A stretch of 64,000 nucleotides of DNA from positions 18,751 to 82,750 of the forward strand of contig JAEHCM010000002.1 in the NCBI GenBank assembly GCA_020696365.1, in the 5' to 3' direction. Both the position numbers and the translations under genes were made by a program. The DNA is from Thermoplasmata archaeon (GTDB taxonomy: Archaea; Thermoplasmatota; Thermoplasmata; UBA10834). Below, one piece after another: positions 5,262 to 32,828 of this stretch (within the stretch, counting starts at the first letter, position 1; every line of letters begins with the position of its first letter). The notes below the pieces were generated by a model. The model saw only the letters and a program-made list of their open reading frames with translations, ran no database searches and had not been told where the DNA came from.

Positions 5262-5453
5262 CCGATTTGGTAAGTGCGGCTCAGCCGTTACACGGATTGC
5301 ACATGAATATCCTGCCGTTCCTTCCACATTTTCTTATTTTCACAGCGTGCAGCGCTAGCGCCGCCCGGCCGATGCCCTTCGGATACACTTTGCCGCAATG
5401 TTAATGATGGACCATCTCATCAGATGCTGCGAAGCATGGTGGAGGCGTTCGAA

Positions 5454-6671: not shown

Positions 6672-6761
6672 GCGCTCCAGCACTTCGCGCCGACCGACGC
6701 CAGGGGTGTCCAGGCAACCGTACGAAAACCGTTAAATCCTAACGACTCATGCAGAACCTGG

Positions 6762-9458
6762 ATGGAGCCCAAGGACTACGAACTCGAGTTCTTCACGAGC
6801 AACGGCTTTCAGCGCAAGCAGTGCAAGGGCTGTCGCAGGTTCTTCTGGACTCTGGGCAACAGGGACACGTGCGGTGAAGCGCCGTGCGTGGAGTACACCT
6901 TCATCGGGAATCCGTTGTTCAAGGAGAAGATGAACGTCCACGAGATGCGCGAGAGCTTCCTGTCTTTCCTCGAGCGGGAGGGGCACACTAGGATCGCGAG
7001 ATACCCTATAACCGCCCGATGGAGGGACGACGTCTTTTTCACACAGGCGAGCATCTATGGCTTCCAGCCATGGGTGATCCAGGGGGTCGTTGACCCACCC
7101 GCCAATCCCCTCGGAATCTCGCAGACATGCGTCCGGTTCAACGATATCGACAATGTGGGAAAAACCGGCTCTCATCTCACCATGTTCGAGATGATGGCCC
7201 ACCATGTCTTCAACAAGAAGGACAAGCCGATCTATTGGAAGGAGCGCACTACGGAGCTGTGCCACGAGTTCCTGACGAAGGTCCAAGGGCTGGACCCGAA
7301 GGCGGTGAGCTACTCCGAGGCGTGGTGGGAAGGCGGAGGAAACGCAGGACCGTGCCTCGAAGTGTTCCTTGGCGGAGTCGAGGTCGCCACTCTCGTGTTC
7401 ATGGAGTACTCGACGGCCAACGGACAACAGACGCCTCTTGACATGCAGGTCGTCGACACAGGTTATGGATTGGAGAGGCTCACGTGGATCTCCCAGGGCA
7501 CGCCCTCGGCCTACGAGGCGGTGTTCGGGGACGTGCTCAGGGAGCTGAAGGAGATCTCTGGAACCGACACGGAGGAGAGGACGCTCGGGGAGTATGCCAA
7601 GGTCGCAGGCTCGATGAAGATCGAGAACGCGGCGGATGTGAGAGAGCTCAGGGCGGACACGGCAGCCAGGGTAGGAATGGATATAGACGAGTTCGTGCGC
7701 CAGATAAGACCTTTCGAGAGCATGTACGTGGTATGCGACCACACCCGCGCGCTGATGTTCATGCTGAGCGACGGTACCGTGCCCTCGAACGTCAGACAGG
7801 GATACTTCGCCCGACTGCTGGTGAGGAGGGCCCTCAGGGAGATGTCGCAGCTAGGGATAGACCGGAAGCTCTCCGAGATAGTCGCCCTGCAGGTCGACTA
7901 CTTCTCTAAAGATTTCCCCGACCTCAAGGAGAACAGGGAGGGCATCCTGAAGCTGGTGGACGTCGAGCAGGACAGGTACAGCGACACGCTCGTGAAAGGC
8001 AGAGGGATAGTTCAGAGGCTGGAGACGTCCTTGGACCAGAGCGGCAAGAGAATATCGGACGAGGACTTGATCGAGCTGTACGACTCACACGGGCTGAACC
8101 CCGAGGTCGTCGCCGAGTTCGCCGAGAAGGAAGTGGCCGTGCCCGATGACTTCTACAAGCGCGTGGCTGCGAGGCATGCGAAGTCGCGCGAGGAGGAGGA
8201 GACCAAGCCAGAGATATCTCTTCCGAAGGGCCTGCCAGCGACCAAGCAGATGTTCTACAAGGACCCATACAAGTACAAGTTCAGGGCGAAGGTGCTCGCC
8301 GTCGAGGGGGACCTCGTCGTGCTCGACAAAACCTACTTCTACGCCGAGAGCGGAGGTCAGGAGTCCGATGTCGGGACGATGAAGGACATGAGGGTCGTCC
8401 ATGTCGACAAGGTCGGCAACGTCGTCGTGCACAGGGTCGAGGGAGAAATGCAGGCGGTCAAGGGAAAGCTGATCACGAGCACGATCAACGAGGGGCGGAG
8501 GAGGAGGCTGCAGAGGCACCACACGGCCACGCACATCGTGAACGGCGCGGCCAGAGAAGTTCTGGGCAACCATGTCTGGCAGACAGGAGCGCACAAATCG
8601 GTGGACGTGGCGAGGCTCGATATCACCCATTACGCTGACATCACGCAGGAGGAGCTGGAGAGGATAGAGAGGAGGGCAAACGAGGTAGTCCTCTCGGGCA
8701 CAAAGGTCGATTCACGCTTCATGGACCGCACGGACGCAGAGAAGAGGTACGGGTTCAGGTTGTACCAGGGCGGAGCCGTCCCGGGGAAGGAGATCAGGGT
8801 CGTGAGGATAGGCGACTTCGACGTGGAGGCCTGCGGAGGAATCCACTGCAAGAACACACTCGAGGTCGGGGCGATCGCCGTGCTCCAGACGAGGAGGATA
8901 CAGGACGGGGTCGTAAGGCTGGAGTTCGCCTCGGGCATGGCAGCGGTAGAGAAGATGATCGCCATGTCGGAGGCGGTCTCGAATGCGAGCTCGATGCTGA
9001 TGACGACCCCGGATGGCCTCGTTAGTGCGGTCAAGCTTCTTCAGGCCGAGAACAAGGACCAACGCAAGGAGCTGGAGAGCGTGAAGAGAGGTCTGGTGGG
9101 CGAGACGGTGGAGGACCTCGTCGCCAGGGCCATGAAGGTCTCCGGAGTCACGATAGTCCGCCATGTCCAATCAGAGGATATGAGGCACCTGGTGAACCTC
9201 GCCAAGGAGCTGATAACCCGTCCGAAGACGATAGCGGTCCTCGCATCGGACCAGGAAGGGGCCAAGATAATCGTCGCGAGGAGCGCCGACGTCGACATAA
9301 ACTGCAGACCTCTGCTAGGGGACGCGATGAAGGCCGTCGGCGGCTCCGGAGGGGGCAAGCCCGATTTCGCCCAGGGAGGAGGGCCGGACGTCGACAAGCT
9401 GGAGCATGCAGTCGACCATGTCGTGTCCGCCCTCAAGAAGGCCCTGGAAGAAGAGTGA
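6762..9458 (+). CDS. alaS: Alanine--tRNA ligase (archaeal type)
   Basis: 898 aa. Archaeal AlaRS N-terminus (FFTSNGFQRKQCKGCRRFFWT). Editing-domain motifs HHTATHIV and ACGGIHC. Confidence 0.95.
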   Translation: MEPKDYELEFFTSNGFQRKQCKGCRRFFWTLGNRDTCGEAPCVEYTFIGNPLFKEKMNVHEMRESFLSFLEREGHTRIARYPITARWRDDVFFTQASIYGFQPWVIQGVVDPPANPLGISQTCVRFNDIDNVGKTGSHLTMFEMMAHHVFNKKDKPIYWKERTTELCHEFLTKVQGLDPKAVSYSEAWWEGGGNAGPCLEVFLGGVEVATLVFMEYSTANGQQTPLDMQVVDTGYGLERLTWISQGTPSAYEAVFGDVLRELKEISGTDTEERTLGEYAKVAGSMKIENAADVRELRADTAARVGMDIDEFVRQIRPFESMYVVCDHTRALMFMLSDGTVPSNVRQGYFARLLVRRALREMSQLGIDRKLSEIVALQVDYFSKDFPDLKENREGILKLVDVEQDRYSDTLVKGRGIVQRLETSLDQSGKRISDEDLIELYDSHGLNPEVVAEFAEKEVAVPDDFYKRVAARHAKSREEEETKPEISLPKGLPATKQMFYKDPYKYKFRAKVLAVEGDLVVLDKTYFYAESGGQESDVGTMKDMRVVHVDKVGNVVVHRVEGEMQAVKGKLITSTINEGRRRRLQRHHTATHIVNGAAREVLGNHVWQTGAHKSVDVARLDITHYADITQEELERIERRANEVVLSGTKVDSRFMDRTDAEKRYGFRLYQGGAVPGKEIRVVRIGDFDVEACGGIHCKNTLEVGAIAVLQTRRIQDGVVRLEFASGMAAVEKMIAMSEAVSNASSMLMTTPDGLVSAVKLLQAENKDQRKELESVKRGLVGETVEDLVARAMKVSGVTIVRHVQSEDMRHLVNLAKELITRPKTIAVLASDQEGAKIIVARSADVDINCRPLLGDAMKAVGGSGGGKPDFAQGGGPDVDKLEHAVDHVVSALKKALEEE

Positions 9459-10063
9459 TGCTGAAGATGTCGAAGTTGAGGGAGTCGGTCAGAAACCTGA
9501 AGTATCTGTTCGAACTCACGAGGTCGGCCGCCATAGCCAGAAGGTACTTCGTCATAGGCGCGTTCGACGGCGCCCTCACTGTCCTTGGTGTGATCATAGG
9601 CGTGTATGTGGCCGAGGCGAGTGTCCACCCTGAGCTGGCCAGGCAGCTGATAATCGGGGCGGGGCTGGCCGGGGGAATCGCACTCGCGGTCTCCAGCGGG
9701 GTCGGCGCCTACGAGGCCGAGAGGGTGGAGCACATACTCAGCCACCAGAACCTCGAGCAGGCCATGCTCTCGAGCGTCGAGGGGACCCGGAAGGAGGCCA
9801 TGAGGGTCAGCATAGTCGTGAGCGCGACAGTGCACGGGGTGGCCCCGATGATCGCCGCTTTCGTGCCGTTGGTGCCGTTCTTCTTCATGCCCCTGCATGA
9901 GGCCGTCGTGACGGGCATCGTAATCACCATGATATTCCTTTTCGTACTCGGGGCGTTCCTCGGCAACATGATAAAGGAGATCTTCGTCTACACGGGCCTG
10001 AGGTTCGTCATAGCCGGGCTCGCCACCGCGATAGTCCTGATACTCATCGGAGGGCATCCGTAG
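9458..10063 (+). CDS. VIT1/CCC1-family membrane protein
   Basis: ARRYFVIGAFDGALTVLGVIIG followed by multiple TM segments. The ATG overlaps the alaS TGA (TGATG). A paralog lies at 56490..57077. Confidence 0.65.
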   Translation: MLKMSKLRESVRNLKYLFELTRSAAIARRYFVIGAFDGALTVLGVIIGVYVAEASVHPELARQLIIGAGLAGGIALAVSSGVGAYEAERVEHILSHQNLEQAMLSSVEGTRKEAMRVSIVVSATVHGVAPMIAAFVPLVPFFFMPLHEAVVTGIVITMIFLFVLGAFLGNMIKEIFVYTGLRFVIAGLATAIVLILIGGHP

Positions 10064-10166
10064 GCGCTCCGAGGTCCGTCGACTCATGGCCTTAAATCAA
10101 CCAATCATCACATATCATCTTCGATAACTGAACATAAATTGGCAATCCTCACCGACGAAGCCCCGG

Positions 10167-20895: not shown

Positions 20896-21303
20896 ATGAA
20901 GAAGATGATGGGTTCGAAGTTGTCCGAGGTCGGCGGGGAGCTCGGCGTCGAGAGAAATGATGTCGATGCAATCAAGAGGATACGATTCAAGCGACTCCTG
21001 TTCAAGAGAATCTTCGGCTGGATGGTTCCGCTCCTGGCTTTCGTCGTCGGGTTCTTCGCCGGGGGGGCGCTGCCTTCCTCAACTAGCGTCTACCCCTACG
21101 CGGCGGCGACGTTCGTGTTCAACTACAAGGCGTTCTCGACCAAGACCAAGTTCACTATACTCGGCACGGCGATACTGTCGGTCGTGGTATTCATCTTGGG
21201 ATTCGTCCTCGGCGGCGACTCGCCGAAGGATTATCCACTCGTGCCGAAGTACACTGTTTCCCCAGCATACGGGGTCTTTCATGTCCAAGGAACGGTGACA
21301 TGA
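20896..21303 (+). CDS. Small membrane protein, paralog 1 (YPYAAA motif)
   Basis: 135 aa with two hydrophobic segments. It aligns with the next ORF over LGV..DV.AIK..R...W.VP...YPYAAA. Confidence 0.6.
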   Translation: MKKMMGSKLSEVGGELGVERNDVDAIKRIRFKRLLFKRIFGWMVPLLAFVVGFFAGGALPSSTSVYPYAAATFVFNYKAFSTKTKFTILGTAILSVVVFILGFVLGGDSPKDYPLVPKYTVSPAYGVFHVQGTVT

Positions 21304-21689
21304 TGAACAACCAGGTTCAGACCATAGAAGGGCTTGGCGTCACCGCGAAAGACGTATCCGCGATCAAGACGGTCAGATCCAGAGAGAGGCTCGTCGGTTT
21401 TCTCAGATCATGGTGGGTCCCGATTGCATCCTCTGCGTCTGGGCTCGTAGCAGGGCTTGCACCGATGCTCGCGCTGGAGGGGAAGGCGGCTTCTACATAC
21501 CCTTACGCGGCCGCAATGGCCTCTGGCGCCATGGTCACAACGGCGGCATCCCGCAAACCCGTCGGTTTTTTGCTGCTGGTAGCGGTGCCGGTGTTCCTCT
21601 TCGCCTTCATAGCAGGTCTCGGCATAGGGGATGCGGTGAACGGAGACAGTCAGTTCGGAGTTGGTACCTTCTACGGGGTGCAGAAATAA
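21300..21689 (+). CDS. Small membrane protein, paralog 2 (YPYAAA motif)
   Basis: 129 aa; ATGA overlap with paralog 1; same conserved blocks. Confidence 0.6.
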   Translation: MMNNQVQTIEGLGVTAKDVSAIKTVRSRERLVGFLRSWWVPIASSASGLVAGLAPMLALEGKAASTYPYAAAMASGAMVTTAASRKPVGFLLLVAVPVFLFAFIAGLGIGDAVNGDSQFGVGTFYGVQK

Positions 21690-21708
21690 TTACGGGAGAC
21701 GGGCCGGA

Positions 21709-22731
21709 TTGATAAGACCTATATCTCTCGATTGTGCCATCTGGGAGCTGACATTGCGATGCAATCTCAGATGCACCCATTGCGGGTCGTCCGCCGGACA
21801 GGCGAGGCCTGATGAGCTGACCACCGAGGAGGCGTTCAGGATGTGCGAGGGCCTCGCCTCTGTCGGTTGCAAGGAGGTGTCGCTCATGGGTGGAGAGCCG
21901 CTTCTCAGGGAGGACTTCGTCGCTATATCGAAATGCGTGGTTCAGCTAGGGATGAAGCTCAGCATAGTCTCGAACGGATTGCTGATAGCGCAACATGTGG
22001 ACAGCATCCAACAACTGAAGCCTGAGGTAGTCGGCATCAGCTTGGACGGCATGAGGGATACCCATGAGACGATACGCGGACAGGGAACCTGGGCAAGGGC
22101 TGTTAAGGCTATCGATCTGTTGAAGGCCCGCGGCGTGCCGACAACGGTCATCACGACTGTGAGCAAACTCAACTACAAGGACCTGCCAGAGATGAGAGAG
22201 CTGCTGAGGTCGAAGGATGTCAACTGGCAGATCCAAACCGCCATGCCCTTCGGCAACTTCCGCAAAGAGCAGACATTGTCCCCTGAAGAGTTCTACTCCA
22301 CCGCGTTGTTCATCGCCAAGGAGAGGATCAGGGGCAAACAGGACAGGATAAGGGTTGCTGGGGCTCACTGCTACGGATACTTCTCAAAGGTCCTTCCGGG
22401 ATGCTCGTGGGACGGATGCACAGCGGGCATCTCGACGATAGGCATCACCAGTAACGGCGGCATAGTTGGCTGTCTGTCCATGGGGAACGACCGGTACTTC
22501 GAGGGGAATGTGAGGGACAGGGCCTTCGCGGACATCTGGAGCGACCCCGGTGCCTTCCCGTACACAAGAAAGTTCAGTCGTGAACAGCTCGGGGAGAACT
22601 GCACGGGATGCAAGTACGGCGCCAAGTGCGAAGGCGGGTGCAATTCCGTGTCTCTCGCGCTGACGGGCAAGATGCACAACAACCCCCACTGCTTCTACTC
22701 GATCGAGAAACGCCTGAAGAGGTCGCTCTAA
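21709..22731 (+). CDS. Radical SAM protein with a C-terminal SPASM-type auxiliary Cys cluster
   Basis: CNLRCTHCG (CxxxCxxC) near the N-terminus. C-terminal CTGCKYGAKCEGGC plus additional Cys. Start ambiguous: TTG at 21709 lies after the previous stop, while the longest ORF starts at 21661. Confidence 0.8.
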   Translation: MIRPISLDCAIWELTLRCNLRCTHCGSSAGQARPDELTTEEAFRMCEGLASVGCKEVSLMGGEPLLREDFVAISKCVVQLGMKLSIVSNGLLIAQHVDSIQQLKPEVVGISLDGMRDTHETIRGQGTWARAVKAIDLLKARGVPTTVITTVSKLNYKDLPEMRELLRSKDVNWQIQTAMPFGNFRKEQTLSPEEFYSTALFIAKERIRGKQDRIRVAGAHCYGYFSKVLPGCSWDGCTAGISTIGITSNGGIVGCLSMGNDRYFEGNVRDRAFADIWSDPGAFPYTRKFSREQLGENCTGCKYGAKCEGGCNSVSLALTGKMHNNPHCFYSIEKRLKRSL

Positions 22732-22791
22732 TATCGACTCGCCCGGCAAAGAGTAATTACGCAGGAATCTGATGAGCCGTCGGAGAACGTG

Positions 22792-23505
22792 ATGTACGAT
22801 TTGAAGCTCAAGATGTGGCTGGTGGACGGCAACAGGTTCATCGTGAGCGATGGCAGGGCCACACTGTTGCGCAAGATACGCGAGTATGGGTCCATGTCCA
22901 AGGCCGCCAAGGAGATGGGCATGTCCTACAGGCACGCCTGGGAGGTTCTCCATAGGATCTCGGAGAACGCAGGCGGAGATATCGTCGCATCGACGAGAGG
23001 GGGGCGAGATGGAGGCGACACGAAGCTCACCAAGCTCGGCGAGACGATATTGAGGGAGTACGACAACAAGACTGAATCGCTGACCAGTCAGCTTGAGAAC
23101 CATTGGAGGAAGCCGTCCGTGACGGTCGACGGCATCGTGATCAAGCGGGACAAGATACTTCTCATCAGAAGAGGGAAGGAGCCATTCAAAGGAGTTTACG
23201 CCCTCCCGGGAGGCTTTCTGGAGTACGGGGAGAAGGCAGAGCATTGTGCGACACGAGAGGTCCAAGAGGAGACCGGGCTCGTCACCGAGATAGTGGACCT
23301 GGTCGGCGTCTACTCGGACCCGAAGAGAGACCCTAGGGGGCACTTCGTCACCGCCGTCTATCACCTGAAGGCCGTCGGGGGACGGCTGAAGGCTGGAGAC
23401 GATGCGCAATCGGCAGAATGGGTACCTTTGGGCAAGCTGCCCGAATTCGCGTTCGACCACGGGATGATCATAAAGGACTTCCTGAAAAGGAAGCGTCAGG
23501 AATGA
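22792..23505 (+). CDS. Fusion protein: ModE-N/LysR-like winged HTH plus NUDIX hydrolase
   Basis: The N-terminal segment GRATLLRKIREYGSMSKAAKEMGMSYRHAWEVL resembles the ModE N-terminal HTH. The NUDIX box is GGFLEYGEKAEHCATREVQEETG. Confidence 0.75.
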   Translation: MYDLKLKMWLVDGNRFIVSDGRATLLRKIREYGSMSKAAKEMGMSYRHAWEVLHRISENAGGDIVASTRGGRDGGDTKLTKLGETILREYDNKTESLTSQLENHWRKPSVTVDGIVIKRDKILLIRRGKEPFKGVYALPGGFLEYGEKAEHCATREVQEETGLVTEIVDLVGVYSDPKRDPRGHFVTAVYHLKAVGGRLKAGDDAQSAEWVPLGKLPEFAFDHGMIIKDFLKRKRQE

Positions 23506-23508
23506 GGC

Positions 23509-24096
23509 TTACAGAGCCGGCGTCAATCCGCTCTGGCCCATGACGAACGGAAGATACACGACCTTCGAGCCGTTAACCGTGAGGGAATAGTCGAGCCTCT
23601 GCAGCACCCCCGGCTTCTCGGCCTCCATGGTGACGACTACGAAGTCCGCCAACTCCACCGCCTCTTCCCTGGACATCATGGCAGGCATACGTCGCACACC
23701 ACCGAAATCAAGCCTGGACCGATACTTCGGTGACGAGACGGTGTAATCTATGGCCAGCCTCTTGAACGTCGATGGGTCGAAATCTGCCGCGGGTATATGG
23801 ATGAACAGCGTCCCGCTGCCGTCCTCGTCCTTCATCCACGACATCAAGCGGAACACGTGCCCGCCCTCCACGCTCTTCGACCTGATGATGAACGAGCAGT
23901 AGAGCCTCCAAAAGGGGACGAACACCCTCTCGCCCGAGGACGACCCACTGAACTCCGCTATCTCGAAATCGAGCTTCTCGGCCCCGCCGTTCCTCGTGTG
24001 AAGGACGTTGCACTTGTCGCAGTAGAAGAGCTGGTCCCGCTGCTTCGAGTATATGGGCGAGTTGCACGAGGGACACTTCACCTGGACGATCCTCAT
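23509..24096 (-). CDS. Zinc-ribbon protein (soluble), last gene of the SPFH operon
   Basis: CPSCNSPIYSKQRDQLFYCDKC ribbon and FVPFWRL motif shared with the two upstream genes. ATGA overlap with the upstream stop. Confidence 0.65.
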   Translation of the reverse strand: MRIVQVKCPSCNSPIYSKQRDQLFYCDKCNVLHTRNGGAEKLDFEIAEFSGSSSGERVFVPFWRLYCSFIIRSKSVEGGHVFRLMSWMKDEDGSGTLFIHIPAADFDPSTFKRLAIDYTVSSPKYRSRLDFGGVRRMPAMMSREEAVELADFVVVTMEAEKPGVLQRLDYSLTVNGSKVVYLPFVMGQSGLTPAL

Positions 24097-25097
24097 CTGT
24101 ACGCCTCCTGCAGTGTTCTCGCAGCGCTCTGCAGCTCCTTGATCGTCTGCGAGACAGATGCGGGCTTGTTCTTGAACTCCCCCTCGACTATCTCCGAGCC
24201 GTGTCTGAAGAATCTGTAGGTGATGTAGAGGATGATGCCGCCAGCGAGTAGCCCTACTATCATCAGCTCCGCGGCGACGCTAGACATGATTATCCCGACC
24301 GCGGCCGCGAGGCCGCCGACCGAGGTCCCAGCGGTGATCGCGAGACTCTGAAAGAGGGGGTCGCCCGGTGCGCGCCCGGACAGCACCTGCCCGGTGACGC
24401 CGTCCACGGTGGTCATGTACATCCTGTCGCGGTAAGTGTAACGCACGACCCAGACGGGGTAATAGACCATCGAGAGTCTCCTCGGGAGCACGTGCAACCG
24501 CTCCATCGTGACGCGGGAGACCTTTGCGGACGACCGTGCCCTGGACTGAGCATCGGACTTGGCACGCGCCACTGCGTCGTCCCTGCTCGTGGTCGCCTCG
24601 AAAGTGGGTATCATATCGAAGTCGGCGAAGCTCGTCTCTCCTGAGAAGTTCCTGAGAGACCGTATGCCAAGGTCGCCAGGGTCGGTGGCGATCTCGGAGA
24701 ATCGGTAGTCGTTGAGAACCATGACCTCCTTCGGCACCTTCTGCTCGTGGACCCTCCCTTTGGAGTCCGTATGGCGTCGTATCTCGTAGCCACATATCCA
24801 GCCAGCAACCCTCGTCATGGCCCTCCAGAACGGCAGGTATATCGGGTACACCTCGATCGTCCTGCCGACACGCTTGAGGTCCCTCGCCTTCCAGCCTCTC
24901 GACCACCAGAGGCGGGACGCCTTCATCGCGCCTTCTCGGTTCACCTTGTTCCTGAAAGCTATCGTCGTGACGCCTTGGTCGCCCTCGATGAAGAGCGTAG
25001 AGTCGCAATAGGGGCACAGGAGCGTGCTCTCACCCTCGACGACGGATACAGCACCTCCGCATGCCGGGCAGTTCAGGCCGACCGATATGTCCGCCAT
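24093..25097 (-). CDS. Zinc-ribbon protein with C-terminal TM segments
   Basis: CPACGGAVSVVEGESTLLCPYC ribbon, YLPFWRAM and YYPVWVVRY motifs, hydrophobic C-terminus. ATG at 25097 is preceded by GGAGGT. Confidence 0.65.
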   Translation of the reverse strand: MADISVGLNCPACGGAVSVVEGESTLLCPYCDSTLFIEGDQGVTTIAFRNKVNREGAMKASRLWWSRGWKARDLKRVGRTIEVYPIYLPFWRAMTRVAGWICGYEIRRHTDSKGRVHEQKVPKEVMVLNDYRFSEIATDPGDLGIRSLRNFSGETSFADFDMIPTFEATTSRDDAVARAKSDAQSRARSSAKVSRVTMERLHVLPRRLSMVYYPVWVVRYTYRDRMYMTTVDGVTGQVLSGRAPGDPLFQSLAITAGTSVGGLAAAVGIIMSSVAAELMIVGLLAGGIILYITYRFFRHGSEIVEGEFKNKPASVSQTIKELQSAARTLQEAYR

Positions 25098-25098
25098 G

Positions 25099-25842
25099 CT
25101 ACAACCTCCTCGCGACCGTGAAAGAGGCTGCGAACACACCTATCACCGTGAGGGCCATGAGGACGAGTGCGGCCGTCAGGGAGCTCAGGGCCAGCACGCC
25201 CTCGAACGCAAACGCCAGGAAACCGAAGGCCGCCACCAGCATGTACGCGGCTGAGCTCCTCGTAGGGAAGACCGCCGAGAAGACCTCACCTGCCGAGGCG
25301 TCAATGATCACATCGTACCTCTTCTGTTCGAAAACGTAGGTGAGACGCCAGATGGGGAAGAAGACCAACGCCTGCTCCTTCGGCTTACCAGGAAGTGAAT
25401 CCACGTACGAGATCATCTCGATGTCCGGCTTGATGAGCTCGGCTCCGCTCGTATCGAACGAGGAGTCGAATATCTTCAAATCGCCGGCGGGCACCTTCAG
25501 CGCGTGCAGCCCGGGCAGCGTCGTGGACCCCGCGGGCTCGAAGAACACCTGCTCCTTCCCGTTGACGTTCCGCTTGAGCATGTACACCGGGAAGTACTGC
25601 TTCTGGACGCCCGCCACCTGGGCACGCTTATCCAGGTCCTTAGCCTTCTTAGAGCCTGCTGCCCATCTCCTGAACAGTCCCATCGCATTCGTTTCATCTA
25701 TCACGAACGGCACGGCGTAGTAGAACCCGGCTCCTGAGCGGTCGATATGGATCTGTGAGTCGCAGTAGGAGCACTTGATGAACCTCGTCCCCGCATCGAA
25801 TGCGACGGGGGCGGCACACTTCGGGCATTTGATCGATGCCAA
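25099..25842 (-). CDS. Zinc-ribbon protein with C-terminal TM segments
   Basis: CPKCAAPVAFDAGTRFIKCSYC ribbon, FFPIWRLTY motif, two C-terminal hydrophobic helices. TTG start. Confidence 0.6.
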   Translation of the reverse strand: MASIKCPKCAAPVAFDAGTRFIKCSYCDSQIHIDRSGAGFYYAVPFVIDETNAMGLFRRWAAGSKKAKDLDKRAQVAGVQKQYFPVYMLKRNVNGKEQVFFEPAGSTTLPGLHALKVPAGDLKIFDSSFDTSGAELIKPDIEMISYVDSLPGKPKEQALVFFPIWRLTYVFEQKRYDVIIDASAGEVFSAVFPTRSSAAYMLVAAFGFLAFAFEGVLALSSLTAALVLMALTVIGVFAASFTVARRL

Positions 25843-25875
25843 GATCTCCCTGCACCGAGACGACTTACGAGTCTA

Positions 25876-26994
25876 TCAAGTTTCCTTCCCGCACTCGGGG
25901 CAGAACTTGACGGAGTTGGGAACTTCCTCCCCACAGGAGGCGCACTTCTTGGTACTAGCGACCCGCCCCCCACATTCCGAACAGAACTTGGATGACGCTG
26001 GGACCTCCGCGTCGCACTTGGAGCACTTCGCCAAGTCAACCGCCATCTTCGCTCCGCACGACGAGCAGAACCTGCTCGAAGGCTGATTCATCTCGCTACA
26101 CTTGGAACAAGGCACGAGCGAGACCGCCTGGGGAGCTGTTCCCTGAGGGACTGGCTGCTGAGGTGGTCGCATGGAATCCATCATCGTCCAGCCCATCCCA
26201 ATGCCTGCGCCGACGCCGACCCCGGCTCCAGCAGTTCCGCCTGAGGGGTTCTGGGCGGCCTCACGCATGGCCTGCCCGGCCTGATACTGGACATAGTTGG
26301 CATTCAATATCTGCATCGAAGACTTCGTATCGACGGCCTTCTGCACCTCCTCCGGAAGCGATATGTACAGACCGGACAGCTTGTCGACCGTGAGGCCGTA
26401 GAGATCGAAGTGATCCTTGCACCTCGCGAGTATGACCTGCTCTATGTTCGTGAGATTGCTGGCGATGTCCGCAACACCCATTCCCTCGTTCTTCATATCG
26501 CCGAGGGAATCGTACACGAGTATGACCATCTGCTCCTTGATCCGCTCTTCGACCTCGGCGCTCGTGGCGTAGTTGAGCGTCCCAACGAACTGGTTCACGA
26601 AGTTCTCGGGGCCAGCGACCTTGTACCGGAACTCGCCGAACACTCGCAGGTTCACCATGCCGAACTCCTTGTCCCTGAACTGGTACGGCTGCTTGCTTCC
26701 GAATTTCGCGTCCAAGACGCGCTTCTGGAGGTAGACGACCTCGGCCTGCTGTTGCACGCCCGAAAGGAACTTGACCACCTTGCCCACTATCGGCGCGTTC
26801 AGTGAGGTGAGCGCGTACCTGTCCGGACGGTCGAAGTATGCGAGCGCTTTGCCGTCGCGGAAGAAGACGGCTACCTCATCCTCTCTAACGACGATGTTGT
26901 CGTTGAACCGGATGTTCCTGGGCATCCGATACATTATGTTTGAGCGCTTGTCTCGGTCCTCCCACTTGAAAGTGTCCGCGCCTATGAGACCCAT
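25876..26994 (-). CDS. SPFH/Band-7 domain protein of the YdjI (COG4260, virion-core-like) type, with three C-terminal zinc ribbons
   Basis: The blocks VREDEVAVFFRDGKALAYFDRPDRYALTS, EFGMVNLRVFGEFRYKV and ISLPEEVQKAVDTKSSM match my recollection of YdjI-family proteins. The C-terminus has three CxxC-x(10-11)-CxxC units. Confidence 0.8.
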   Translation of the reverse strand: MGLIGADTFKWEDRDKRSNIMYRMPRNIRFNDNIVVREDEVAVFFRDGKALAYFDRPDRYALTSLNAPIVGKVVKFLSGVQQQAEVVYLQKRVLDAKFGSKQPYQFRDKEFGMVNLRVFGEFRYKVAGPENFVNQFVGTLNYATSAEVEERIKEQMVILVYDSLGDMKNEGMGVADIASNLTNIEQVILARCKDHFDLYGLTVDKLSGLYISLPEEVQKAVDTKSSMQILNANYVQYQAGQAMREAAQNPSGGTAGAGVGVGAGIGMGWTMMDSMRPPQQPVPQGTAPQAVSLVPCSKCSEMNQPSSRFCSSCGAKMAVDLAKCSKCDAEVPASSKFCSECGGRVASTKKCASCGEEVPNSVKFCPECGKET

Positions 26995-26997
26995 ACA

Positions 26998-27528
26998 TCA
27001 CACCTCCGTTCCCTCGATCACCCTCAAGCGGGCGCCGAACTTATCCTCGAAATCGGTGATCCTCGCCTTGATGTTCATCATGTCCCTGAATATGGTTGAC
27101 TCGTCCGCGGCCATGAGTGAGTTCTTCAGAGACTCTATGCTGGCGGCCATGGACGCCATGTGGTCGAGCATGCTCGCATCGTACTCATAGAGTCGGTCGA
27201 GCTCCTCCTCCTTCACGCTGATATCGGCGGCTATCCCGGAGTATCCGACAGGCGCGTGGGCGACCTGGCCTTCCACCTTCTTGAACTGGTTGATCAATCC
27301 TCCGATCATGTCGAGCTCCTTCGATCCGGATCCCCGAATGAGAATCCCTCGACACTCCTCGAGGCCACGCCTCTGCAGAGCAATCTTCTGAGATAGTTGA
27401 GCGCGGAGCATGCGATCCGCATCTCTGATGTCTTCCCTGCGACGGTAACCTCTGAATCCCGGGACATAAGTCTGAATCTTCTTCAGAAGTCCTCTGTCGT
27501 CTTCGATCCTTTCCCTGATATCAGCCAT
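26998..27528 (-). CDS. Coiled-coil protein, first gene of the SPFH operon (function unknown)
   Basis: 176 aa, charged and helical (MADIRERIEDDRGLLKKIQ...). ATG at 27528 is preceded by GGAGGCG. The stop lies 3 nt before the SPFH gene start. Confidence 0.6.
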   Translation of the reverse strand: MADIRERIEDDRGLLKKIQTYVPGFRGYRRREDIRDADRMLRAQLSQKIALQRRGLEECRGILIRGSGSKELDMIGGLINQFKKVEGQVAHAPVGYSGIAADISVKEEELDRLYEYDASMLDHMASMAASIESLKNSLMAADESTIFRDMMNIKARITDFEDKFGARLRVIEGTEV

Positions 27529-27642
27529 CCTGGACGCCTCCGTCAAGTGCCTCAATATCGTATGGAAGGCCTAATAAACATGTCGTTGGTAGGCCAGGGG
27601 TCAGAAGTGCATTTATGTCTGAGGAGCCTATTTCGTCCCACG

Positions 27643-28119
27643 ATGGCCTCCGATATAATAGGCGTGATAGGCGCCAGTCGCGCAGACGACGAACTTCTGA
27701 GGCTGGCGGAGGAACTGGGACAGGAAATCGCCTCCAGAGGCGTCGCAATCGTCTGTGGCGGCATGACGGGCGTGATGGAGGCAGTCTGTAAAGGCGCACG
27801 GGCGAAGGGAGGGCTGACAATCGGCATCATCCCCTCTGATGACAAGAACGATGCCAATCAGTATGTCCAGGTACCCATCGTCACAGGCATGGGGGTGGGG
27901 AGGAACGTGATACTCGTCAAGACCGCAGACGTTCTCATAGCCGTAGGGGGCGAGTACGGGACTCTGTCTGAGATCGCCCATGCGCTGAACATCGGCAAGA
28001 CGGTGGTGGCGCTACGTTCTTGGAACCTGGAAAGAGCCGCGGAGAAGTCCATCCCGAACCTGATAGATGCCAAGAGTCCGAAAGAAGCCGTGGACCTGGC
28101 GCTGGACGCCCTCCATTAG
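27643..28119 (+). CDS. TIGR00725 / LOG-like (SLOG) Rossmann-fold protein
   Basis: IGVIGASR..., VCGGMTGVMEAVCKGA, GGEYGTLSE motifs. ATG at 27643 chosen; the upstream 82 codons of the ORF are not supported. Confidence 0.75.
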   Translation: MASDIIGVIGASRADDELLRLAEELGQEIASRGVAIVCGGMTGVMEAVCKGARAKGGLTIGIIPSDDKNDANQYVQVPIVTGMGVGRNVILVKTADVLIAVGGEYGTLSEIAHALNIGKTVVALRSWNLERAAEKSIPNLIDAKSPKEAVDLALDALH

Positions 28120-28939: not shown

Positions 28940-29324
28940 CCAACCTACGAGGTCGGCGGAATAGTTAAAGCTTCGGGCCGGCCGACCTCAGACCCGAGTT
29001 GCTGGAACGATGTCCGTTCATAGAGCGCGCAGCGTCCGCCGCCGATGTTTGGCGGAGGGGAACACATATCGGGGGATCCCTCGCAGTCCACCAAGGGGAT
29101 GAGACCCCTCGAGATGTGTTTAGAGGCGACAGTTATTTGTGCTACCTGCGTATGCTCACCCGAAGCCCTTCCGGGCTCTGTCATACCATATCTGTGACAT
29201 GGTTCCCTCAAACACTAGCAAGGATGGGGTGACTCCTAATAGCTGCGAAAAGGGGTACGTTGAACTAAGAAGTTGACTACGTCGAAGAACGACTTTACGA
29301 ACTACAGATAATCTATGGTGAACT

Positions 29325-31250
29325 ATGTCATTCAGAAGAATTCTCTTAATTAAGCCTTCGGGGAGGCATGGGATAAGCTTTGCATTTGATATGATTCCCA
29401 CTGGGCTTGAGTACATTGCCGCGCATATTGAGGATGTTGTTGACGAGATCAATATTGTTGATTTGGAGATGGAGCCTAAGCCAATACAACAGGCTGCCGC
29501 TGGGCTCTTAGATTCCCTTAAGCCCGATCTAGTGGGCATATCTATGTCTTCAACAGAGCACACCGAAGGCCTTGAGCTTGCACAAATGGCCAAGAAACGA
29601 GGTGCAATGACGGTTCTGGGCGGATACCATCCTACGGCAATCCCAGATGAACTACTTTCACATCCTCAAGTAGATTATATAGTCCGGGGCGAGGGCGAAC
29701 AAAAATTCAAGGAACTAGTGATAAAAGGAGATGCAAAGGGCATCAAGGGAATCTCTTATAGAGATGGAAACGAAATAATTCATAATCCTGAGCGAGATTT
29801 CATCAAGGACTTAGATAGCCTATCGTTCCCTGCTCGGCATCTCCGGCGATATAAATATTACCTATCTATGGCGAGAGGCAAAGAGCATGATATAATTACA
29901 ACTTCTAGGGGCTGTTGGGGCAGATGTAGTTTCTGCTGTGAGCCTACAATGAGCAATAGCCATCAGCGTTATCGCTCCCCAGAGAATGTTATGGCGGAGA
30001 TATTGGAGATAGTCAAGTACCATGATGGAAAGCCGCTCAGCATTGAAATCACGGATCCTCATTTTATGGGCAAGCCTGAGCTGGTTGAGAGGCTTTGTGA
30101 TTTGTTAGCTAGCCATAAGCTGGACATAGGTTTCACTGCAAAAGTCCGGCCGGATTCTATGGCAAAGCATCCTGAAGTTGTTCGGAAAATGATAGCAGTT
30201 GGCATTGCCCACTTTGAAATGGGTATTGAGAGCCCAAACATGAGAGACCTTGGAAATACGTCCAAGGGAGTTAGCCCAGATATTCATATTACGGCTGTTA
30301 ACAATATTAAGAAATGGGGAGGGAGTGCAGGAGGAACATTTGTTATTGGCTTGCCAGACCAAACTGAAGAGGAAATACTGGAATTTCCAGCTTATGCCAA
30401 GAAACTTGGAATCGTGGGCAGTGCGTTTGGCATAGCAACACCATATCCCGGCACAAAATTCTACGAAGAACTGGATACAAAAGGGCTGATATTTGAGACT
30501 GATTGGAATAGATTCGATGAGATGCATTCTGTATATAACTTAAAGCATATCTCAAGTGAGCGAATCGAGGAGCTGGCATCGATTTGCATGGCCAAATTCT
30601 GGACGGTGGATACATTTTTTGAAAGGGAACGCTTGAGAATTATCAGGGAAAACAATATGTGGTCCATGGATGCAGAGGCACCTATCAAAGAAGGTGACAA
30701 ACAATTTATGGACAAAAGACTCACTTTAATGGAGTTCATCAGGCAGAGAAGGGTCGACATCAAATTCTCGCTATCCGCAGGCACTCAGCTTCAAGGAGAT
30801 AATTTCAACAAACATATGCAACAGTTTTTCGAGGTATCGCCAGATCCGTCAGTAAAGAGATATACTGAGAAAGTAGGAATTCATAATCTTATAAAGATGT
30901 CCAGATTCTTAGATTTACTTGGACCCCAGACGACTCAAATAACAATGAGATCGGACGGAAAACCTCTCGTGAGCTGGGTTATCAAGACCACAAAGAACAC
31001 GGTGGAACACATTCAGGTAATACCTGGGAAGATGGATGGTGCTACAATCGATTTTGACGCAGAACTAAATGATTTCAAAATCAATGGGCAACAGCGCTCG
31101 TCAAAAATCAACAACGTCAGACTTGTAGCTAAATTACTCGCGTCAAACAAAGGCATCAAGAACCAGCTGGGTTTGTGCCGGTTAATCGCCGCAGCTGGCA
31201 TTGAGTTTACCACGTATTTAGGAACGAAAAATAATGGGAATAGCGAGTGA
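29325..31250 (+). CDS. B12-binding-domain radical SAM protein with a ~200-aa C-terminal extension
   Basis: N-terminal cobalamin-binding-like Rossmann region (LVGISMSST...VLGGYHPT) and the radical SAM triad CWGRCSFCC. AT-richer codon usage than the backbone. Confidence 0.8.
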   Translation: MSFRRILLIKPSGRHGISFAFDMIPTGLEYIAAHIEDVVDEINIVDLEMEPKPIQQAAAGLLDSLKPDLVGISMSSTEHTEGLELAQMAKKRGAMTVLGGYHPTAIPDELLSHPQVDYIVRGEGEQKFKELVIKGDAKGIKGISYRDGNEIIHNPERDFIKDLDSLSFPARHLRRYKYYLSMARGKEHDIITTSRGCWGRCSFCCEPTMSNSHQRYRSPENVMAEILEIVKYHDGKPLSIEITDPHFMGKPELVERLCDLLASHKLDIGFTAKVRPDSMAKHPEVVRKMIAVGIAHFEMGIESPNMRDLGNTSKGVSPDIHITAVNNIKKWGGSAGGTFVIGLPDQTEEEILEFPAYAKKLGIVGSAFGIATPYPGTKFYEELDTKGLIFETDWNRFDEMHSVYNLKHISSERIEELASICMAKFWTVDTFFERERLRIIRENNMWSMDAEAPIKEGDKQFMDKRLTLMEFIRQRRVDIKFSLSAGTQLQGDNFNKHMQQFFEVSPDPSVKRYTEKVGIHNLIKMSRFLDLLGPQTTQITMRSDGKPLVSWVIKTTKNTVEHIQVIPGKMDGATIDFDAELNDFKINGQQRSSKINNVRLVAKLLASNKGIKNQLGLCRLIAAAGIEFTTYLGTKNNGNSE

Positions 31251-31307
31251 TCAACATTGTGCTAGTAGTTCCTAAAGTCGTTCGGATGACGATTGGAGAG
31301 AGAACAA

Positions 31308-32552
31308 ATGACGTTCAAGGATCTTAAGCTCATAGAGCCTCTTCTGGAGGCAATTGCTAAACAGGGTTATACTGCGCCAACACCAATACAGGAACAGGCA
31401 ATTCCTCATATTCTTCAAGGCAGGGATTTGATTGGGATCGCACAAACTGGCACCGGAAAGACTGCTGCATTTGTTCTTCCCCTATTGCAGTTGATGTCAC
31501 AATCACCTAGGCGTATTATCCCTAAGTCTCCTAGAACTCTAGTTGTTGCGCCAACTAGAGAATTAGCTGCGCAGATAAATGAAAGCTTTGCAACCTACGG
31601 CTCATTTATGAGATTCAGGCACACTGTAATGTTCGGCGGTGTCAGCCAAGGCGCTCAGGTTAGATCAATTTCCAAGGGTGTTGATGTCCTAGTCGCTACA
31701 CCTGGCAGATTATTGGACTTGATGAATCAGGGTTACGTGAATCTAAACCATTTAGAATTTCTTGTTCTCGATGAGGTTGATAGAATGCTTGACATGGGAT
31801 TCATAGTTGATGTCAAGAGAATCATTTCAAAATTGCCGACACACAGACAATCAATATTCCTTTCAGCAACAATGCCGCAAAAGATAAGCGAGCTTGCAAA
31901 AACATTGCTACGTCATCCTGTGCGCGTTGAAGTTGATCCTCAAGCAACCACCGTAAAACTAGTTCAACAAAAAGTTCTCTTTGTAGACGAAAGAAACAAG
32001 ATCACGATTCTATTGAAATTGCTGAAACATGAAGATCTGAAATGTGTACTGATATTTGCCAGAACAAAAAGAAGAGCCAATAACGTCGCCAAGCTGCTGA
32101 CCAATCAGGGTATTCGGGCTGAAGCCATACATGGCAACAAATCACAGAGTCAAAGAACAAGAGCATTAGACAATTTCAAATCAGGACATGCAAGAGTGCT
32201 GGTTGCAACTGACATTGCTGCAAGAGGCATTGACGTTGATGACATATCCCATGTAATAAACTATGATTTACCTGTTGACCAGATAGATAACTATGTTCAT
32301 AGAATTGGCCGTACCGCAAGAGCAGGAGCCAGGGGAACTGCATATTCCCTGTGCGCGAGCTATGAACGGAACGCCTTGAGAGAAATCGAAAGCCTCATAA
32401 AAATGAATATCAACGTAATGTCTCATTCATTCCATTCTAACACAGCAAGAGATGCTGTTGGCGCTGCTGCAAGACCGCCGCCAAAACAACAAAGAGGTCA
32501 GAGAAGGTCAAATATGAATCGACAGGATAAGAGACATTATCGATCGAAATAG
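31308..32552 (+). CDS. DEAD-box ATP-dependent RNA helicase (motif II is DEVD)
   Basis: Q-motif TPIQ, motif I AQTGTGKT, motif II DEVD, motif III SAT, motif VI HRIGRTAR, and a basic C-terminal tail. ATG at 31308 lies after GGAGAG. Confidence 0.9.
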   Translation: MTFKDLKLIEPLLEAIAKQGYTAPTPIQEQAIPHILQGRDLIGIAQTGTGKTAAFVLPLLQLMSQSPRRIIPKSPRTLVVAPTRELAAQINESFATYGSFMRFRHTVMFGGVSQGAQVRSISKGVDVLVATPGRLLDLMNQGYVNLNHLEFLVLDEVDRMLDMGFIVDVKRIISKLPTHRQSIFLSATMPQKISELAKTLLRHPVRVEVDPQATTVKLVQQKVLFVDERNKITILLKLLKHEDLKCVLIFARTKRRANNVAKLLTNQGIRAEAIHGNKSQSQRTRALDNFKSGHARVLVATDIAARGIDVDDISHVINYDLPVDQIDNYVHRIGRTARAGARGTAYSLCASYERNALREIESLIKMNINVMSHSFHSNTARDAVGAAARPPPKQQRGQRRSNMNRQDKRHYRSK

Positions 32553-32594
32553 AATGTCTAGAATTCTCGGTTCAGGAAAACCCCTTATCTCCTG

Positions 32595-32609
32595 CTGAAA
32601 AATGGATAG
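32595..32609 (+). repeat. Degenerate copy of the boundary repeat (CTGAAAAATGGATAG, preceded by ATCTCCTG as in copy D)
   Basis: ATCTCCTG-CTGAAAAATGGATAG compares with ATCTCCTGAGAAAAGGCCATAG at 53193-53215. It lies just after the DEAD-box gene stop. Confidence 0.3.
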
Positions 32610-32707
32610 AAAGTGGAGAGGGGGCACTCCCTAGGGACGTAATTCTGTTTCTGTTGCATTTCACTCCCTACGGTCTCTTCCGATGCGAGATAACGGCATA
32701 TTTATTC

Positions 32708-32718
32708 AAAAAGAAAAA
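32708..32718 (-). terminator. Oligo-T terminator after tRNA(Ala)
   Basis: The minus strand reads TTTTTCTTTTT immediately 3' of the tRNA. Confidence 0.6.
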
Positions 32719-32790
32719 TGGACCGAAGGGGATTTGAACCCCTGACCTCCTGCTTGCAAAGCAGGCGATCTTCCACTGATCTATCGGCCC
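32719..32790 (-). tRNA. tRNA-Ala (anticodon UGC)
   Basis: The minus strand reads GGGCCGATAGATCAGTGGAAGATCGCCTGCTTTGCAAGCAGGAGGTCAGGGGTTCAAATCCCCTTCGGTCCA. It has a 7-bp acceptor stem with G3:U70, anticodon loop TTTGCAA, and no encoded CCA. Confidence 0.93.
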
Positions 32791-32828
32791 TTATGCTAGG
32801 TCTCGAAGACGGCGATTGAGTGTCGTCG

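Follow-up and report, generated by a model that had tools for sequence, protein, structure and literature searches.

Does an archaeal operon built around an SPFH protein resemble the pspA-ydjGHI (samGHI) operon of Bacillus subtilis in more than outline, and does its first gene stand in for PspA? These questions are raised by five genes, g1 to g5, on a 64,000-nucleotide (nt) stretch of contig JAEHCM010000002.1 from an uncultured Thermoplasmata archaeon (assembly GCA_020696365.1). The whole stretch that was analyzed is referred to as the window. A first-pass annotation had described a packed minus-strand operon encoding a coiled-coil protein (g1), a YdjI-like SPFH protein with three zinc ribbons (g2) and three paralogous zinc-ribbon proteins (g3 to g5). 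It had called the operon analogous to the ydj operon and proposed g1 for the PspA-like role. All five open reading frames (ORFs) were found at the coordinates given, and, exactly as described, successive genes are separated by 3, 33 and 1 nt and the last two overlap in ATGA. By analogy with Bacillus, we consider it fairly probable that the locus encodes a membrane-associated SPFH scaffold of the YdjG/YdjI (SamG/SamI) type used in membrane-stress sensing or maintenance. The evidence presented below argues against g1 as its PspA.

The assignment of g2 to the YdjI type stands. g2 matches the Pfam family Band_7_1 (PF13421) with E=1.4e-34 and 120 bits (cutoff 24) over profile positions 7-210 of 211. 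When B. subtilis YdjI was searched against all ORFs of the window with phmmer, g2 was the best match (7.6e-17) and the next ORF reached 1.5e-3. The two proteins were aligned by hhalign over 295 columns (99.1% probability, E=5e-19). The C-terminus of g2 carries three ribbons recognized as three matched stretches by the Pfam models DZR (3.4e-20) and Zn_Ribbon_1 (3e-17). CxxC motifs are found at residues 296, 310, 324, 338, 351 and 365, giving three CxxC-x10-CxxC ribbons. The earlier annotation was correct about their number and location, and the spacer, put at 10 to 11 residues, is 10 in each. Over 19-residue stretches the hydropathy of g2 peaks at 1.12, and no segment reaches 1.6.

The same phmmer search with B. 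subtilis YdjG matched only g3 (1.6e-7) and g4 (3.3e-7). The g3 profile aligns with YdjG over 192 columns (hhalign 96.2%, E=2e-9), from the second ribbon of YdjG to just before its membrane helix. The g4 profile gave 96.7% and E=4e-10, and BLASTP placed g4 residues 10-287 against YdjG 74-339 (4e-7). g3 and g4 are related to each other over the whole cytoplasmic domain (BLASTP 6e-15; hhalign 99.3%, E=1e-20, 191 columns). YdjG consists of zinc ribbons, a YpeB-related domain and a membrane segment (Ravi et al. 2024, PMC11237479), and a weak PepSY match at g4 residues 171-240 (E=0.004, below cutoff) fits a YpeB-related core. Judged by sequence, g3 and g4 are true homologs of YdjG/SamG, and the likeness to the B. 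subtilis operon is stronger than the analogy first drawn, with g2 homologous to YdjI and g3/g4 to YdjG.

An archaeal contig (L085) encodes a 377-amino-acid (aa) protein whose match to B. subtilis YdjG reaches 1.7e-37 and whose match to the g4 profile reaches 9e-13. Its gene lies in a row composed of a g1 relative, a close g2 relative, the YdjG ortholog, which has two ribbons, and a beta-propeller membrane protein. In sequence terms this ortholog bridges B. subtilis YdjG and g4.

As annotated, g3 and g4 end in predicted transmembrane (TM) helices and g5 is soluble. With its length of about 46-48 residues, the hydrophobic stretch of g3 and g4 could cross the membrane twice, which would place the core domain of both proteins in the cytoplasm. 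Hydropathy revealed no hydrophobic membrane segment in g1, g2 or g5. The g3 orthologs are uniformly 247 aa.

Each of the proteins g3, g4 and g5 opens with a CPxC...CxxC ribbon, as had been noticed, and the spacer is x14 in all. The claim that the three are paralogs holds for g3 and g4, while g5 is tied to them only through the ribbon. hhalign aligned g5 to g3/g4 at 95% and E about 1e-8 over 43-46 columns comprising the ribbon and the next strand, and to YdjG at 79% over 15 columns. No significant homology of g5 to the YdjG family was found beyond the ribbon, and g5 has no membrane anchor. In a relaxed alignment with g4, which is not significant alone, the motifs FVPFWR (FxPFWR), SREEAVELA/SRDDAVARA and VYLPF/VYYPVW occur in the same order. 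The AlphaFold2 (AF2) model of g5, with a predicted local distance difference test (pLDDT) of 87.1 and a predicted template modeling score (pTM) of 0.86, has the ribbon followed by an alpha/beta domain in which two long beta-hairpins bear the motifs FVPFWR, SREEAVELA and VYLPF. Foldseek found no solved relative of this model in the PDB except zinc fingers for the ribbon. There are 238 g5 homologs, and every one with an organism name is from a Thermoplasmata-type archaeon. g5 is probably a truncated, anchor-less relative of g3 and g4.

The ribbons could also be taken to mean that g3 to g5 are nucleic-acid-binding or transcription proteins. The JGI annotation labels g4 orthologs 'DNA-directed RNA polymerase subunit RPC12/RpoP' and g5 orthologs 'DUF1610' or 'YacG' (P0003, P0005, P0398 and P0420 are among the labeled orthologs), and the ribbons of g3 to g5 have weak matches to the RpoP, S27e and L37ae models. 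The RpoP-type matches all fall below curated cutoffs and cover ~30 ribbon residues. Outside the ribbon, g3 and g4 are homologs of YdjG with membrane helices at the end, and g3 to g5 have a fixed place in the operon of an SPFH protein. A role in transcription is hardly credible. The RpoP, DUF1610 and YacG labels, which appear to derive from this ~30-residue ribbon alone, were rejected and appear to be over-annotations.

A pspA-ydjGHI locus of the B. subtilis type (L076) was located in metagenome contigs via the ydjG cloning primer (Scholz et al. 2021). The shared features are considerable. YdjI and g2 are both soluble Band_7_1 SPFH proteins with a low-complexity linker and a C-terminal ribbon region, of one ribbon in YdjI and three in g2. 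YdjG and g3/g4 have an N-terminal ribbon region, a core with the motifs YxPFW and YxPVW...DG.TG.V, and a C-terminal membrane anchor, and each operon also encodes a soluble helical protein. The differences are in composition. The archaeal operon has neither PspA nor the TPM-domain protein YdjH, its YdjG-type gene is duplicated, and it has an extra soluble ribbon protein, g5, and a g1-family protein that the B. subtilis operon does not contain. g3 and g4 have one ribbon against two in YdjG, and their 46-48-residue hydrophobic stretch contrasts with the single C-terminal helix of YdjG. The gene order is g1-I-G-G-g5 rather than pspA-G-H-I, and the host is an archaeon.

In B. subtilis, YdjG and YdjH are required for soluble YdjI and PspA to reach the membrane (Scholz 2021, PMC8581546). 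SamI restrains SamGH signalling, and its loss leads to constitutive SamGH-dependent stress signalling, a phenotype for which PspA is dispensable (Baur et al. 2026, bioRxiv 10.64898/2026.02.06.704340). By analogy, g3 and g4 would form a membrane receptor that recruits g2 SPFH oligomers to the cytoplasmic face. g5, lacking the anchor, might compete with or bridge the interaction between g2 and g3/g4, and gene context suggests that g1 may bind the SPFH protein as a dedicated adaptor or regulator. Zinc ribbons are present on the SPFH tail, on the g3 to g5 partners and on some g1 relatives, and are likely docking modules. The assembly would sense or buffer membrane stress.

g1 is, as first described, a 176-aa charged helical protein of unknown family. 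It is 34% charged, its close homologs are all 176 aa, and it has no match in Pfam. The AF2 model (pLDDT 84.5, pTM 0.81) is all-helical and, in place of the coiled coil that had been proposed, predicts a compact bundle of five helices at residues 2-21, 31-64, 69-91, 107-139 and 143-172.

In the PspA-like role suggested for it, g1 would be a PspA equivalent that polymerizes on damaged membrane and repairs or remodels it, and the SPFH and YdjG-like proteins would recruit g1. g1 is the first gene of the operon, as pspA is in B. subtilis. It is helical, soluble and highly charged, helical bundles of the apolipophorin type are among its weak Foldseek matches, and the archaeal loci contain no PspA. 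ESCRT-III and PspA proteins have a long hairpin with at least 50 residues per helix. In the model the helices of g1 are 20-34 residues long and packed in a compact bundle, and conservation in the g1 family sits in polar loop motifs rather than along amphipathic helix faces.

The comparison of g1 with PspA, Vipp1 and ESCRT-III by fold and profile, which the first-pass annotation had recommended, gave no similarity in Foldseek, hhalign or Pfam. g1 did not match PspA_IM30 or Snf7 in Pfam at E<=0.1, and for 69 diverse g1 relatives at E<=1 neither family was among the 25 most matched families listed. hhalign gave a probability of 0.2% for g1 against B. subtilis PspA. The g1 profile produced only chance matches (E>=0.23) among PDB sequences. 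Foldseek against the PDB listed no PspA, Vipp1 or ESCRT-III in the top 50 and nothing below E=0.1, and Foldseek against BFVD showed no PspA/ESCRT-III similarity. After the Pfam, NCBIfam, PDB profile, hhalign and Foldseek searches, g1 was rejected as a PspA/ESCRT-III homolog.

To which family, then, does g1 belong? In NCBIfam, g1 residues 6-170 align with positions 9-172 of 175 in NF047596 (LIMLP_15305_fam) with 6.6e-12 and 45.7 bits (cutoff 210). The match is full-length and below cutoff, so g1 is a distant homolog of this Leptospira family rather than a member. No Pfam family common to the 69 diverse relatives was found. A profile search for the g1 family, clustered at 50% identity, returned 1,203 clusters at E<=1e-3, of which 623 reached E<=1e-10. 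The members with organism names come from Thermoplasmata, Methanocorpusculum, Hodarchaeota, Odinarchaeota and Chloroflexota. In some relatives the g1 domain is fused to zinc ribbons on its N-terminal side or to DUF4178 on its C-terminal side, DUF4178 being a domain already reported from PspA operons (Ravi 2024, PMC11237479). The same authors describe a PspAB domain (e.g. AAZ55047.1) paired with a membrane metallopeptidase; g1 might correspond to this domain, and, compared by description only, its gene context differs. Nothing functional was found in the literature on the LIMLP_15305 Leptospira locus, Band_7_1, PF13421 or COG4260.

Two motifs, IPGFRGY...E..R..D...R and HA..GYSG...L...Y..D, are conserved in g1. 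Residues kept across the family are P23, G24, G27, Y28, E32, R35, D38, R42, G95, Y96, L110, Y114, D117 and R167. They occupy the 1-2 and 3-4 interhelical loops, the first turns of helices 2 and 4 and the final part of helix 5. If the bundle is of the up-down type, all of them would come together at the same end, which hints at one binding site.

There is no second g1 copy within the window. In three other Thermoplasmata loci a second g1 paralog stands by itself ~1.2-1.3 kb downstream of g5 (L001 5750-6274, a called gene of 174 aa; L045 13280-13828; L051 5828-6376), with E=1e-37 to 2e-30 to g1.

The gene neighborhood of g1 relatives was looked up on 12 contigs, comprising eight distant g1-family representatives, two cluster members and two g4 orthologs. 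Two contigs did not extend far enough for a judgment. The g1 relative is immediately followed by a Band_7_1 gene in Methanocorpusculum (L081/L082), on the archaeal contig L085, and on the unplaced contigs L087 and L078, the latter probably bacterial. A 40-aa ORF separates the two genes in L083/L084, which the source records assign to Hod- and Odinarchaeota of the Asgard group. The pair is also present in the Chloroflexales loci L072/L073, which came from the genome scan described below. The Chloroflexales SPFH partner (L072 8774-9817) has no zinc ribbons and has at its end a short helical tail, ISEDNYNRLMQKWQQRL, that appears SHOCT-like by eye.

A genuine pspA gene accompanies the pair in some bacterial operons. 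On one Chloroflexia locus recovered from two samples (L088/L089) the order is a 2-TM protein with a g4-type ribbon, DUF2207, g1, PspA and a YdjI-type SPFH protein, and the PspA matches B. subtilis PspA at 2e-22. On L086, a g1-DUF4178 fusion is followed by a PspA_IM30 protein and then by a YdjI-type SPFH protein with ribbons. These operons share with the archaeal one the g1 domain and a YdjI-type SPFH protein with C-terminal ribbons and, on L088, a nearby membrane protein with a g4-type ribbon. They differ in having PspA between the g1 and SPFH genes and a long low-complexity tail or DUF4178 on g1. The Chloroflexia operon has the 2-TM/ribbon protein and DUF2207 in place of YdjG-like proteins. 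Since a genuine pspA shares an operon with a g1 relative, which argues against redundancy, g1 acts alongside PspA and not instead of it. g1 is thus a partner in the PspA-SPFH network and not a PspA substitute. A functional analog of PspA is disfavored for the same reason, and we regard the proposal that g1 polymerizes in place of PspA as unlikely.

The membrane partner beside the g1-SPFH pair varies. It is YdjG-like in some loci, a small 4-TM protein in others (L081, L087), a 2-TM/ribbon protein with DUF2207 in Chloroflexota, and a multi-ribbon beta-propeller protein in L078. The g4-type ribbon recurs in unrelated neighbors of the pair. The L078 protein (5359-7032) is 557 aa long with several zinc ribbons and a repeat-rich, beta-propeller-like C-terminal domain, and the L085 neighbor (8846-10147) has the arrangement TM/LVIVD beta-propeller/TM. 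Both may be alternative sensor modules. From gene context we infer that g1 and the SPFH protein form the constant core in archaea and Chloroflexota alike, with a variable membrane anchor and PspA sometimes inserted between the two genes. The further proposal, that g1 represents an undescribed ancient family and an obligate partner of YdjI-type SPFH proteins, the pair being the core and anchors and PspA exchangeable, is tentative, and we regard it as possible rather than probable.

How far is the five-gene unit conserved? One genome per GTDB species was scanned with a close g1 alignment as the seed, which returned 72 loci. Because the scan rested on the closer g1 alignment, the survey is biased toward Thermoplasmata. 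Gene order was counted at the 50 loci whose sequence continues for 3.6 kb or more past g1. The order g1-g2-g3-g4-g5 on one strand was found in 48/50 species-level loci, Methanomassiliicoccales included, where g1 identity to the window goes down to about 45-55%. The zinc-ribbon genes thus adjoin the SPFH gene in other genomes, one of the points on which the first-pass annotation had staked its reading. The median identity to the window is highest for g2 (74%), followed by g3 (68%), g1 (66%), g4 (64%) and g5 (59%). Another genome has quite different genes around the cluster. Conservation of the five genes is far beyond chance and, since they stay constant while the flanks change, they behave as one inherited module. 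Metagenomes contain proteins 97-99% identical to g1, g4 and g5, and the homologs with an organism name in this comparison all belong to Thermoplasmata-type archaea.

The flanking genes of the window are not part of this module. A SLOG/TIGR00725 gene (27643-28119, plus strand; LDcluster4, 3.3e-47) is divergent from g1, and a gene for a ModE-like helix-turn-helix (HTH) and NUDIX protein (22789-23505, plus strand) converges on g5, the two stop codons being 3 nt apart. In a nearer clade of ~33 species-level loci, the SLOG gene is adjacent in 33 and the NUDIX gene in 27. The Methanomassiliicoccales clade lacks both and retains the five genes. The divergent SLOG neighbor that had been pointed out is therefore confirmed for the nearer clade and missing from Methanomassiliicoccales, which makes it lineage-level synteny. 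The SLOG and NUDIX genes were rejected as module parts, as they flank the cluster in the nearer clade only. These two genes may constitute a separate unit of nucleotide signalling.

These neighbors bear on a second interpretation, in which the module is mainly for signalling. The YdjG-like proteins would sense stress, the SPFH protein would act as a brake, and g1 or g5 would relay the signal to a cytoplasmic target. This would agree with the behavior of SamI mutants, in which SamGH signals constitutively and PspA is dispensable (Baur et al. 2026). The SLOG gene and the regulator-like HTH-NUDIX gene flank the operon in the ~33 nearer species loci, and g5, as a soluble relative, could serve as a decoy or messenger. 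Profile scans revealed no recognizable output domain (kinase, DNA-binding or cyclase) in the operon, g3 and g4 have almost no extracytoplasmic sequence for sensing, and the operon is retained in Methanomassiliicoccales where the SLOG and NUDIX genes are missing. Signalling as the main function is rather unlikely.

Zinc-ribbon-rich cassettes beside SLOG and NUDIX genes also resemble conflict systems, and the cluster might be an antiviral defense or abortive infection system around a membrane-acting SPFH protein. g5 has a weak PADLOC match to HEC-08 (3.1e-4), and the SLOG and NUDIX neighbors match the PsyrA and PDC-S07 models. In PADLOC-DB there was no match for g1, g2 or g4, g3 gave 0.088, and the g5 match covers only ~40 ribbon residues. 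No nuclease, nucleoside triphosphatase, pore-forming or other effector domain was found in the cluster, and its guanine-plus-cytosine (GC) content equals that of the surroundings. Defense islands are usually patchy in distribution. The five genes are inherited like core genes, with the same order in 48/50 species across the class and median identities of 59-74%. Given the negative PADLOC scan and this core-like inheritance, the defense reading was rejected as very unlikely.

The preferred reading, a YdjG/YdjI-type membrane scaffold, has to be weighed against several adverse points. Its function is extrapolated by analogy from one walled bacterium with a different operon make-up. YdjH is reported to contact PspA and YdjI directly in Bacillus, and phmmer detected no PspA or YdjH homolog in the window or within 8 kb in ~70 archaeal loci; g1 and g5 gave <0.4% against YdjH in hhalign. 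Two of the 50 Thermoplasmata species keep only g1-g2, so g3 to g5 are dispensable in some lineages. Some g1 relatives have no SPFH gene nearby, namely that of L080 and the second paralogs in L001, L045 and L051. Finally, the AF2 models of g1 and g5 have no informative structural neighbors, so that the roles proposed for these two proteins derive from gene context.

Other SPFH systems follow a similar principle. In the stomatin-NfeD (QmcA-YbbJ), HflK/C-FtsH and FloA/FloT systems, an SPFH protein is encoded with a dedicated membrane partner, and an oligomeric SPFH assembly organizes a membrane patch. Stomatin, HflK/C and flotillin differ in having their own membrane insertion and long coiled-coil walls; g2 has neither, and the NfeD and FtsH partners are unrelated to g1 and g3 to g5. 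In a locus from Methanomassiliicoccaceae (L046 10018-11636) g3 to g5 are missing and, on reading the sequence, g1-g2 are followed by what appear to be an NfeD-type protein and a stomatin-type, membrane-inserted SPFH protein. The two kinds of SPFH pair would thus coexist in this genome. The Meth_adaptin ESCRT loci (Makarova et al. 2024, PMC10936438), compared by description, likewise contain an archaeal zinc-ribbon SPFH protein linked by context to ESCRT-III/PspA. They include Vps4, ESCRT-III and adaptin-like proteins, none of which is encoded in or near the g1-g5 operon.

The five genes leave room for a single promoter only. In an alignment of 11 orthologous regions upstream of g1, a TATA box (TTTATTA, 27572-27578), the motif GATATT (27554-27559) and a GGAGG Shine-Dalgarno sequence (27537-27541) are invariant and the intervening columns vary, as expected of a conserved archaeal TATA promoter with a leadered mRNA. 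A GGAGG-like Shine-Dalgarno sequence precedes the start codon of each of g1 to g5. Coordinates are listed in the table.

Table. Coordinates of the genes, domains and promoter of the g1-g5 operon in the window.
Feature	Position	Strand	Extent	Description
Operon promoter and leader	27537-27578	-		Upstream of g1 ATG; alignment of 11 orthologous upstream regions
g1	26998-27528	-	176 aa, ATG start	Soluble, predicted five-helix bundle
g2	25876-26994	-	372 aa	YdjI/SamI-type SPFH protein without membrane helix
g2 SPFH domain	26275-26925	-	residues 24-240	Band_7_1 24-228, Band_7 35-240
g2 linker	26119-26274	-	residues 241-292	Gly/Ala/Met/Gln-rich, low complexity; sequence GQAMREAAQNPSGGTAGAGVGVGAGIGMGWTMMDSM...
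g2 zinc ribbons	25879-26118	-	residues 293-372	Three, tandem, C-terminal
g3	25099-25842	-	247 aa, TTG start	YdjG/SamG-like protein
g3 zinc ribbon	25753-25833	-		
g3 C-terminal hydrophobic anchor	25108-25251	-	residues 198-245	Hydropathy
g4	24093-25097	-	334 aa	YdjG/SamG-like paralog of g3
g4 zinc ribbon	24996-25076	-		
g4 hydrophobic anchor	24207-24344	-	residues 252-297	Hydropathy; followed by a cytoplasmic tail of ~37 aa
g5	23509-24096	-	195 aa	Soluble zinc-ribbon protein
g5 N-terminal zinc ribbon	24001-24081	-		

Two other regions of the window were observed. Two tandem genes, in which the stop codon of the first overlaps the start codon of the second, encode small membrane proteins of 135 and 129 aa at 20896-21303 and 21300-21689 on the plus strand. 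The two proteins are alike, with a charged N-terminus followed by hydrophobic segments and no Pfam match, and a radical SAM/SPASM enzyme gene (21661-22731, plus strand) directly follows. The genes from 20896 to 22731 could be a peptide-modification or maturase cassette. From about 29000 to 32800 the GC content is 0.43-0.51, compared with about 0.58 elsewhere in the window. Within it lie genes for a B12-binding radical SAM protein (29325-31250) and for a DEAD-box helicase (31293-32552), and a tRNA-Ala gene (32719-32790) marks its end. The stretch may have been gained by horizontal transfer.

In Firmicutes, the pairing of YdjG with YdjI and its connection to PspA have been described before, and an archaeal SPFH-ESCRT-III link has been noted for another locus type (Makarova et al. 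2024, PMC10936438). In the literature searched there was no description of the archaeal five-gene operon, of g1 as an SPFH partner or of g1-pspA-ydjI operons. SPFH proteins organize membranes in all domains of life, and the working of the YdjI/SamI type is known from two studies of one bacterium. The present results extend the YdjG-YdjI pairing deep into the archaea, where it is passed on within a fixed set of five genes that does not include pspA. Whether the link between ESCRT-III/PspA and SPFH proteins is ancient was asked by Makarova et al. (2024, PMC10936438). The occurrence of g1-pspA-ydjI in Chloroflexota and of g1-ydjI without pspA in archaea suggests that the SPFH side can stand alone without PspA. 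The g1 family accompanies YdjI-type SPFH proteins more faithfully than PspA does, which makes it a new candidate component of the PspA/SPFH stress network and the part most worth following. If g1 is indeed an obligate SPFH partner, it would be either a new factor that regulates or caps SPFH assemblies or a helical effector of a new type that acts on membranes.

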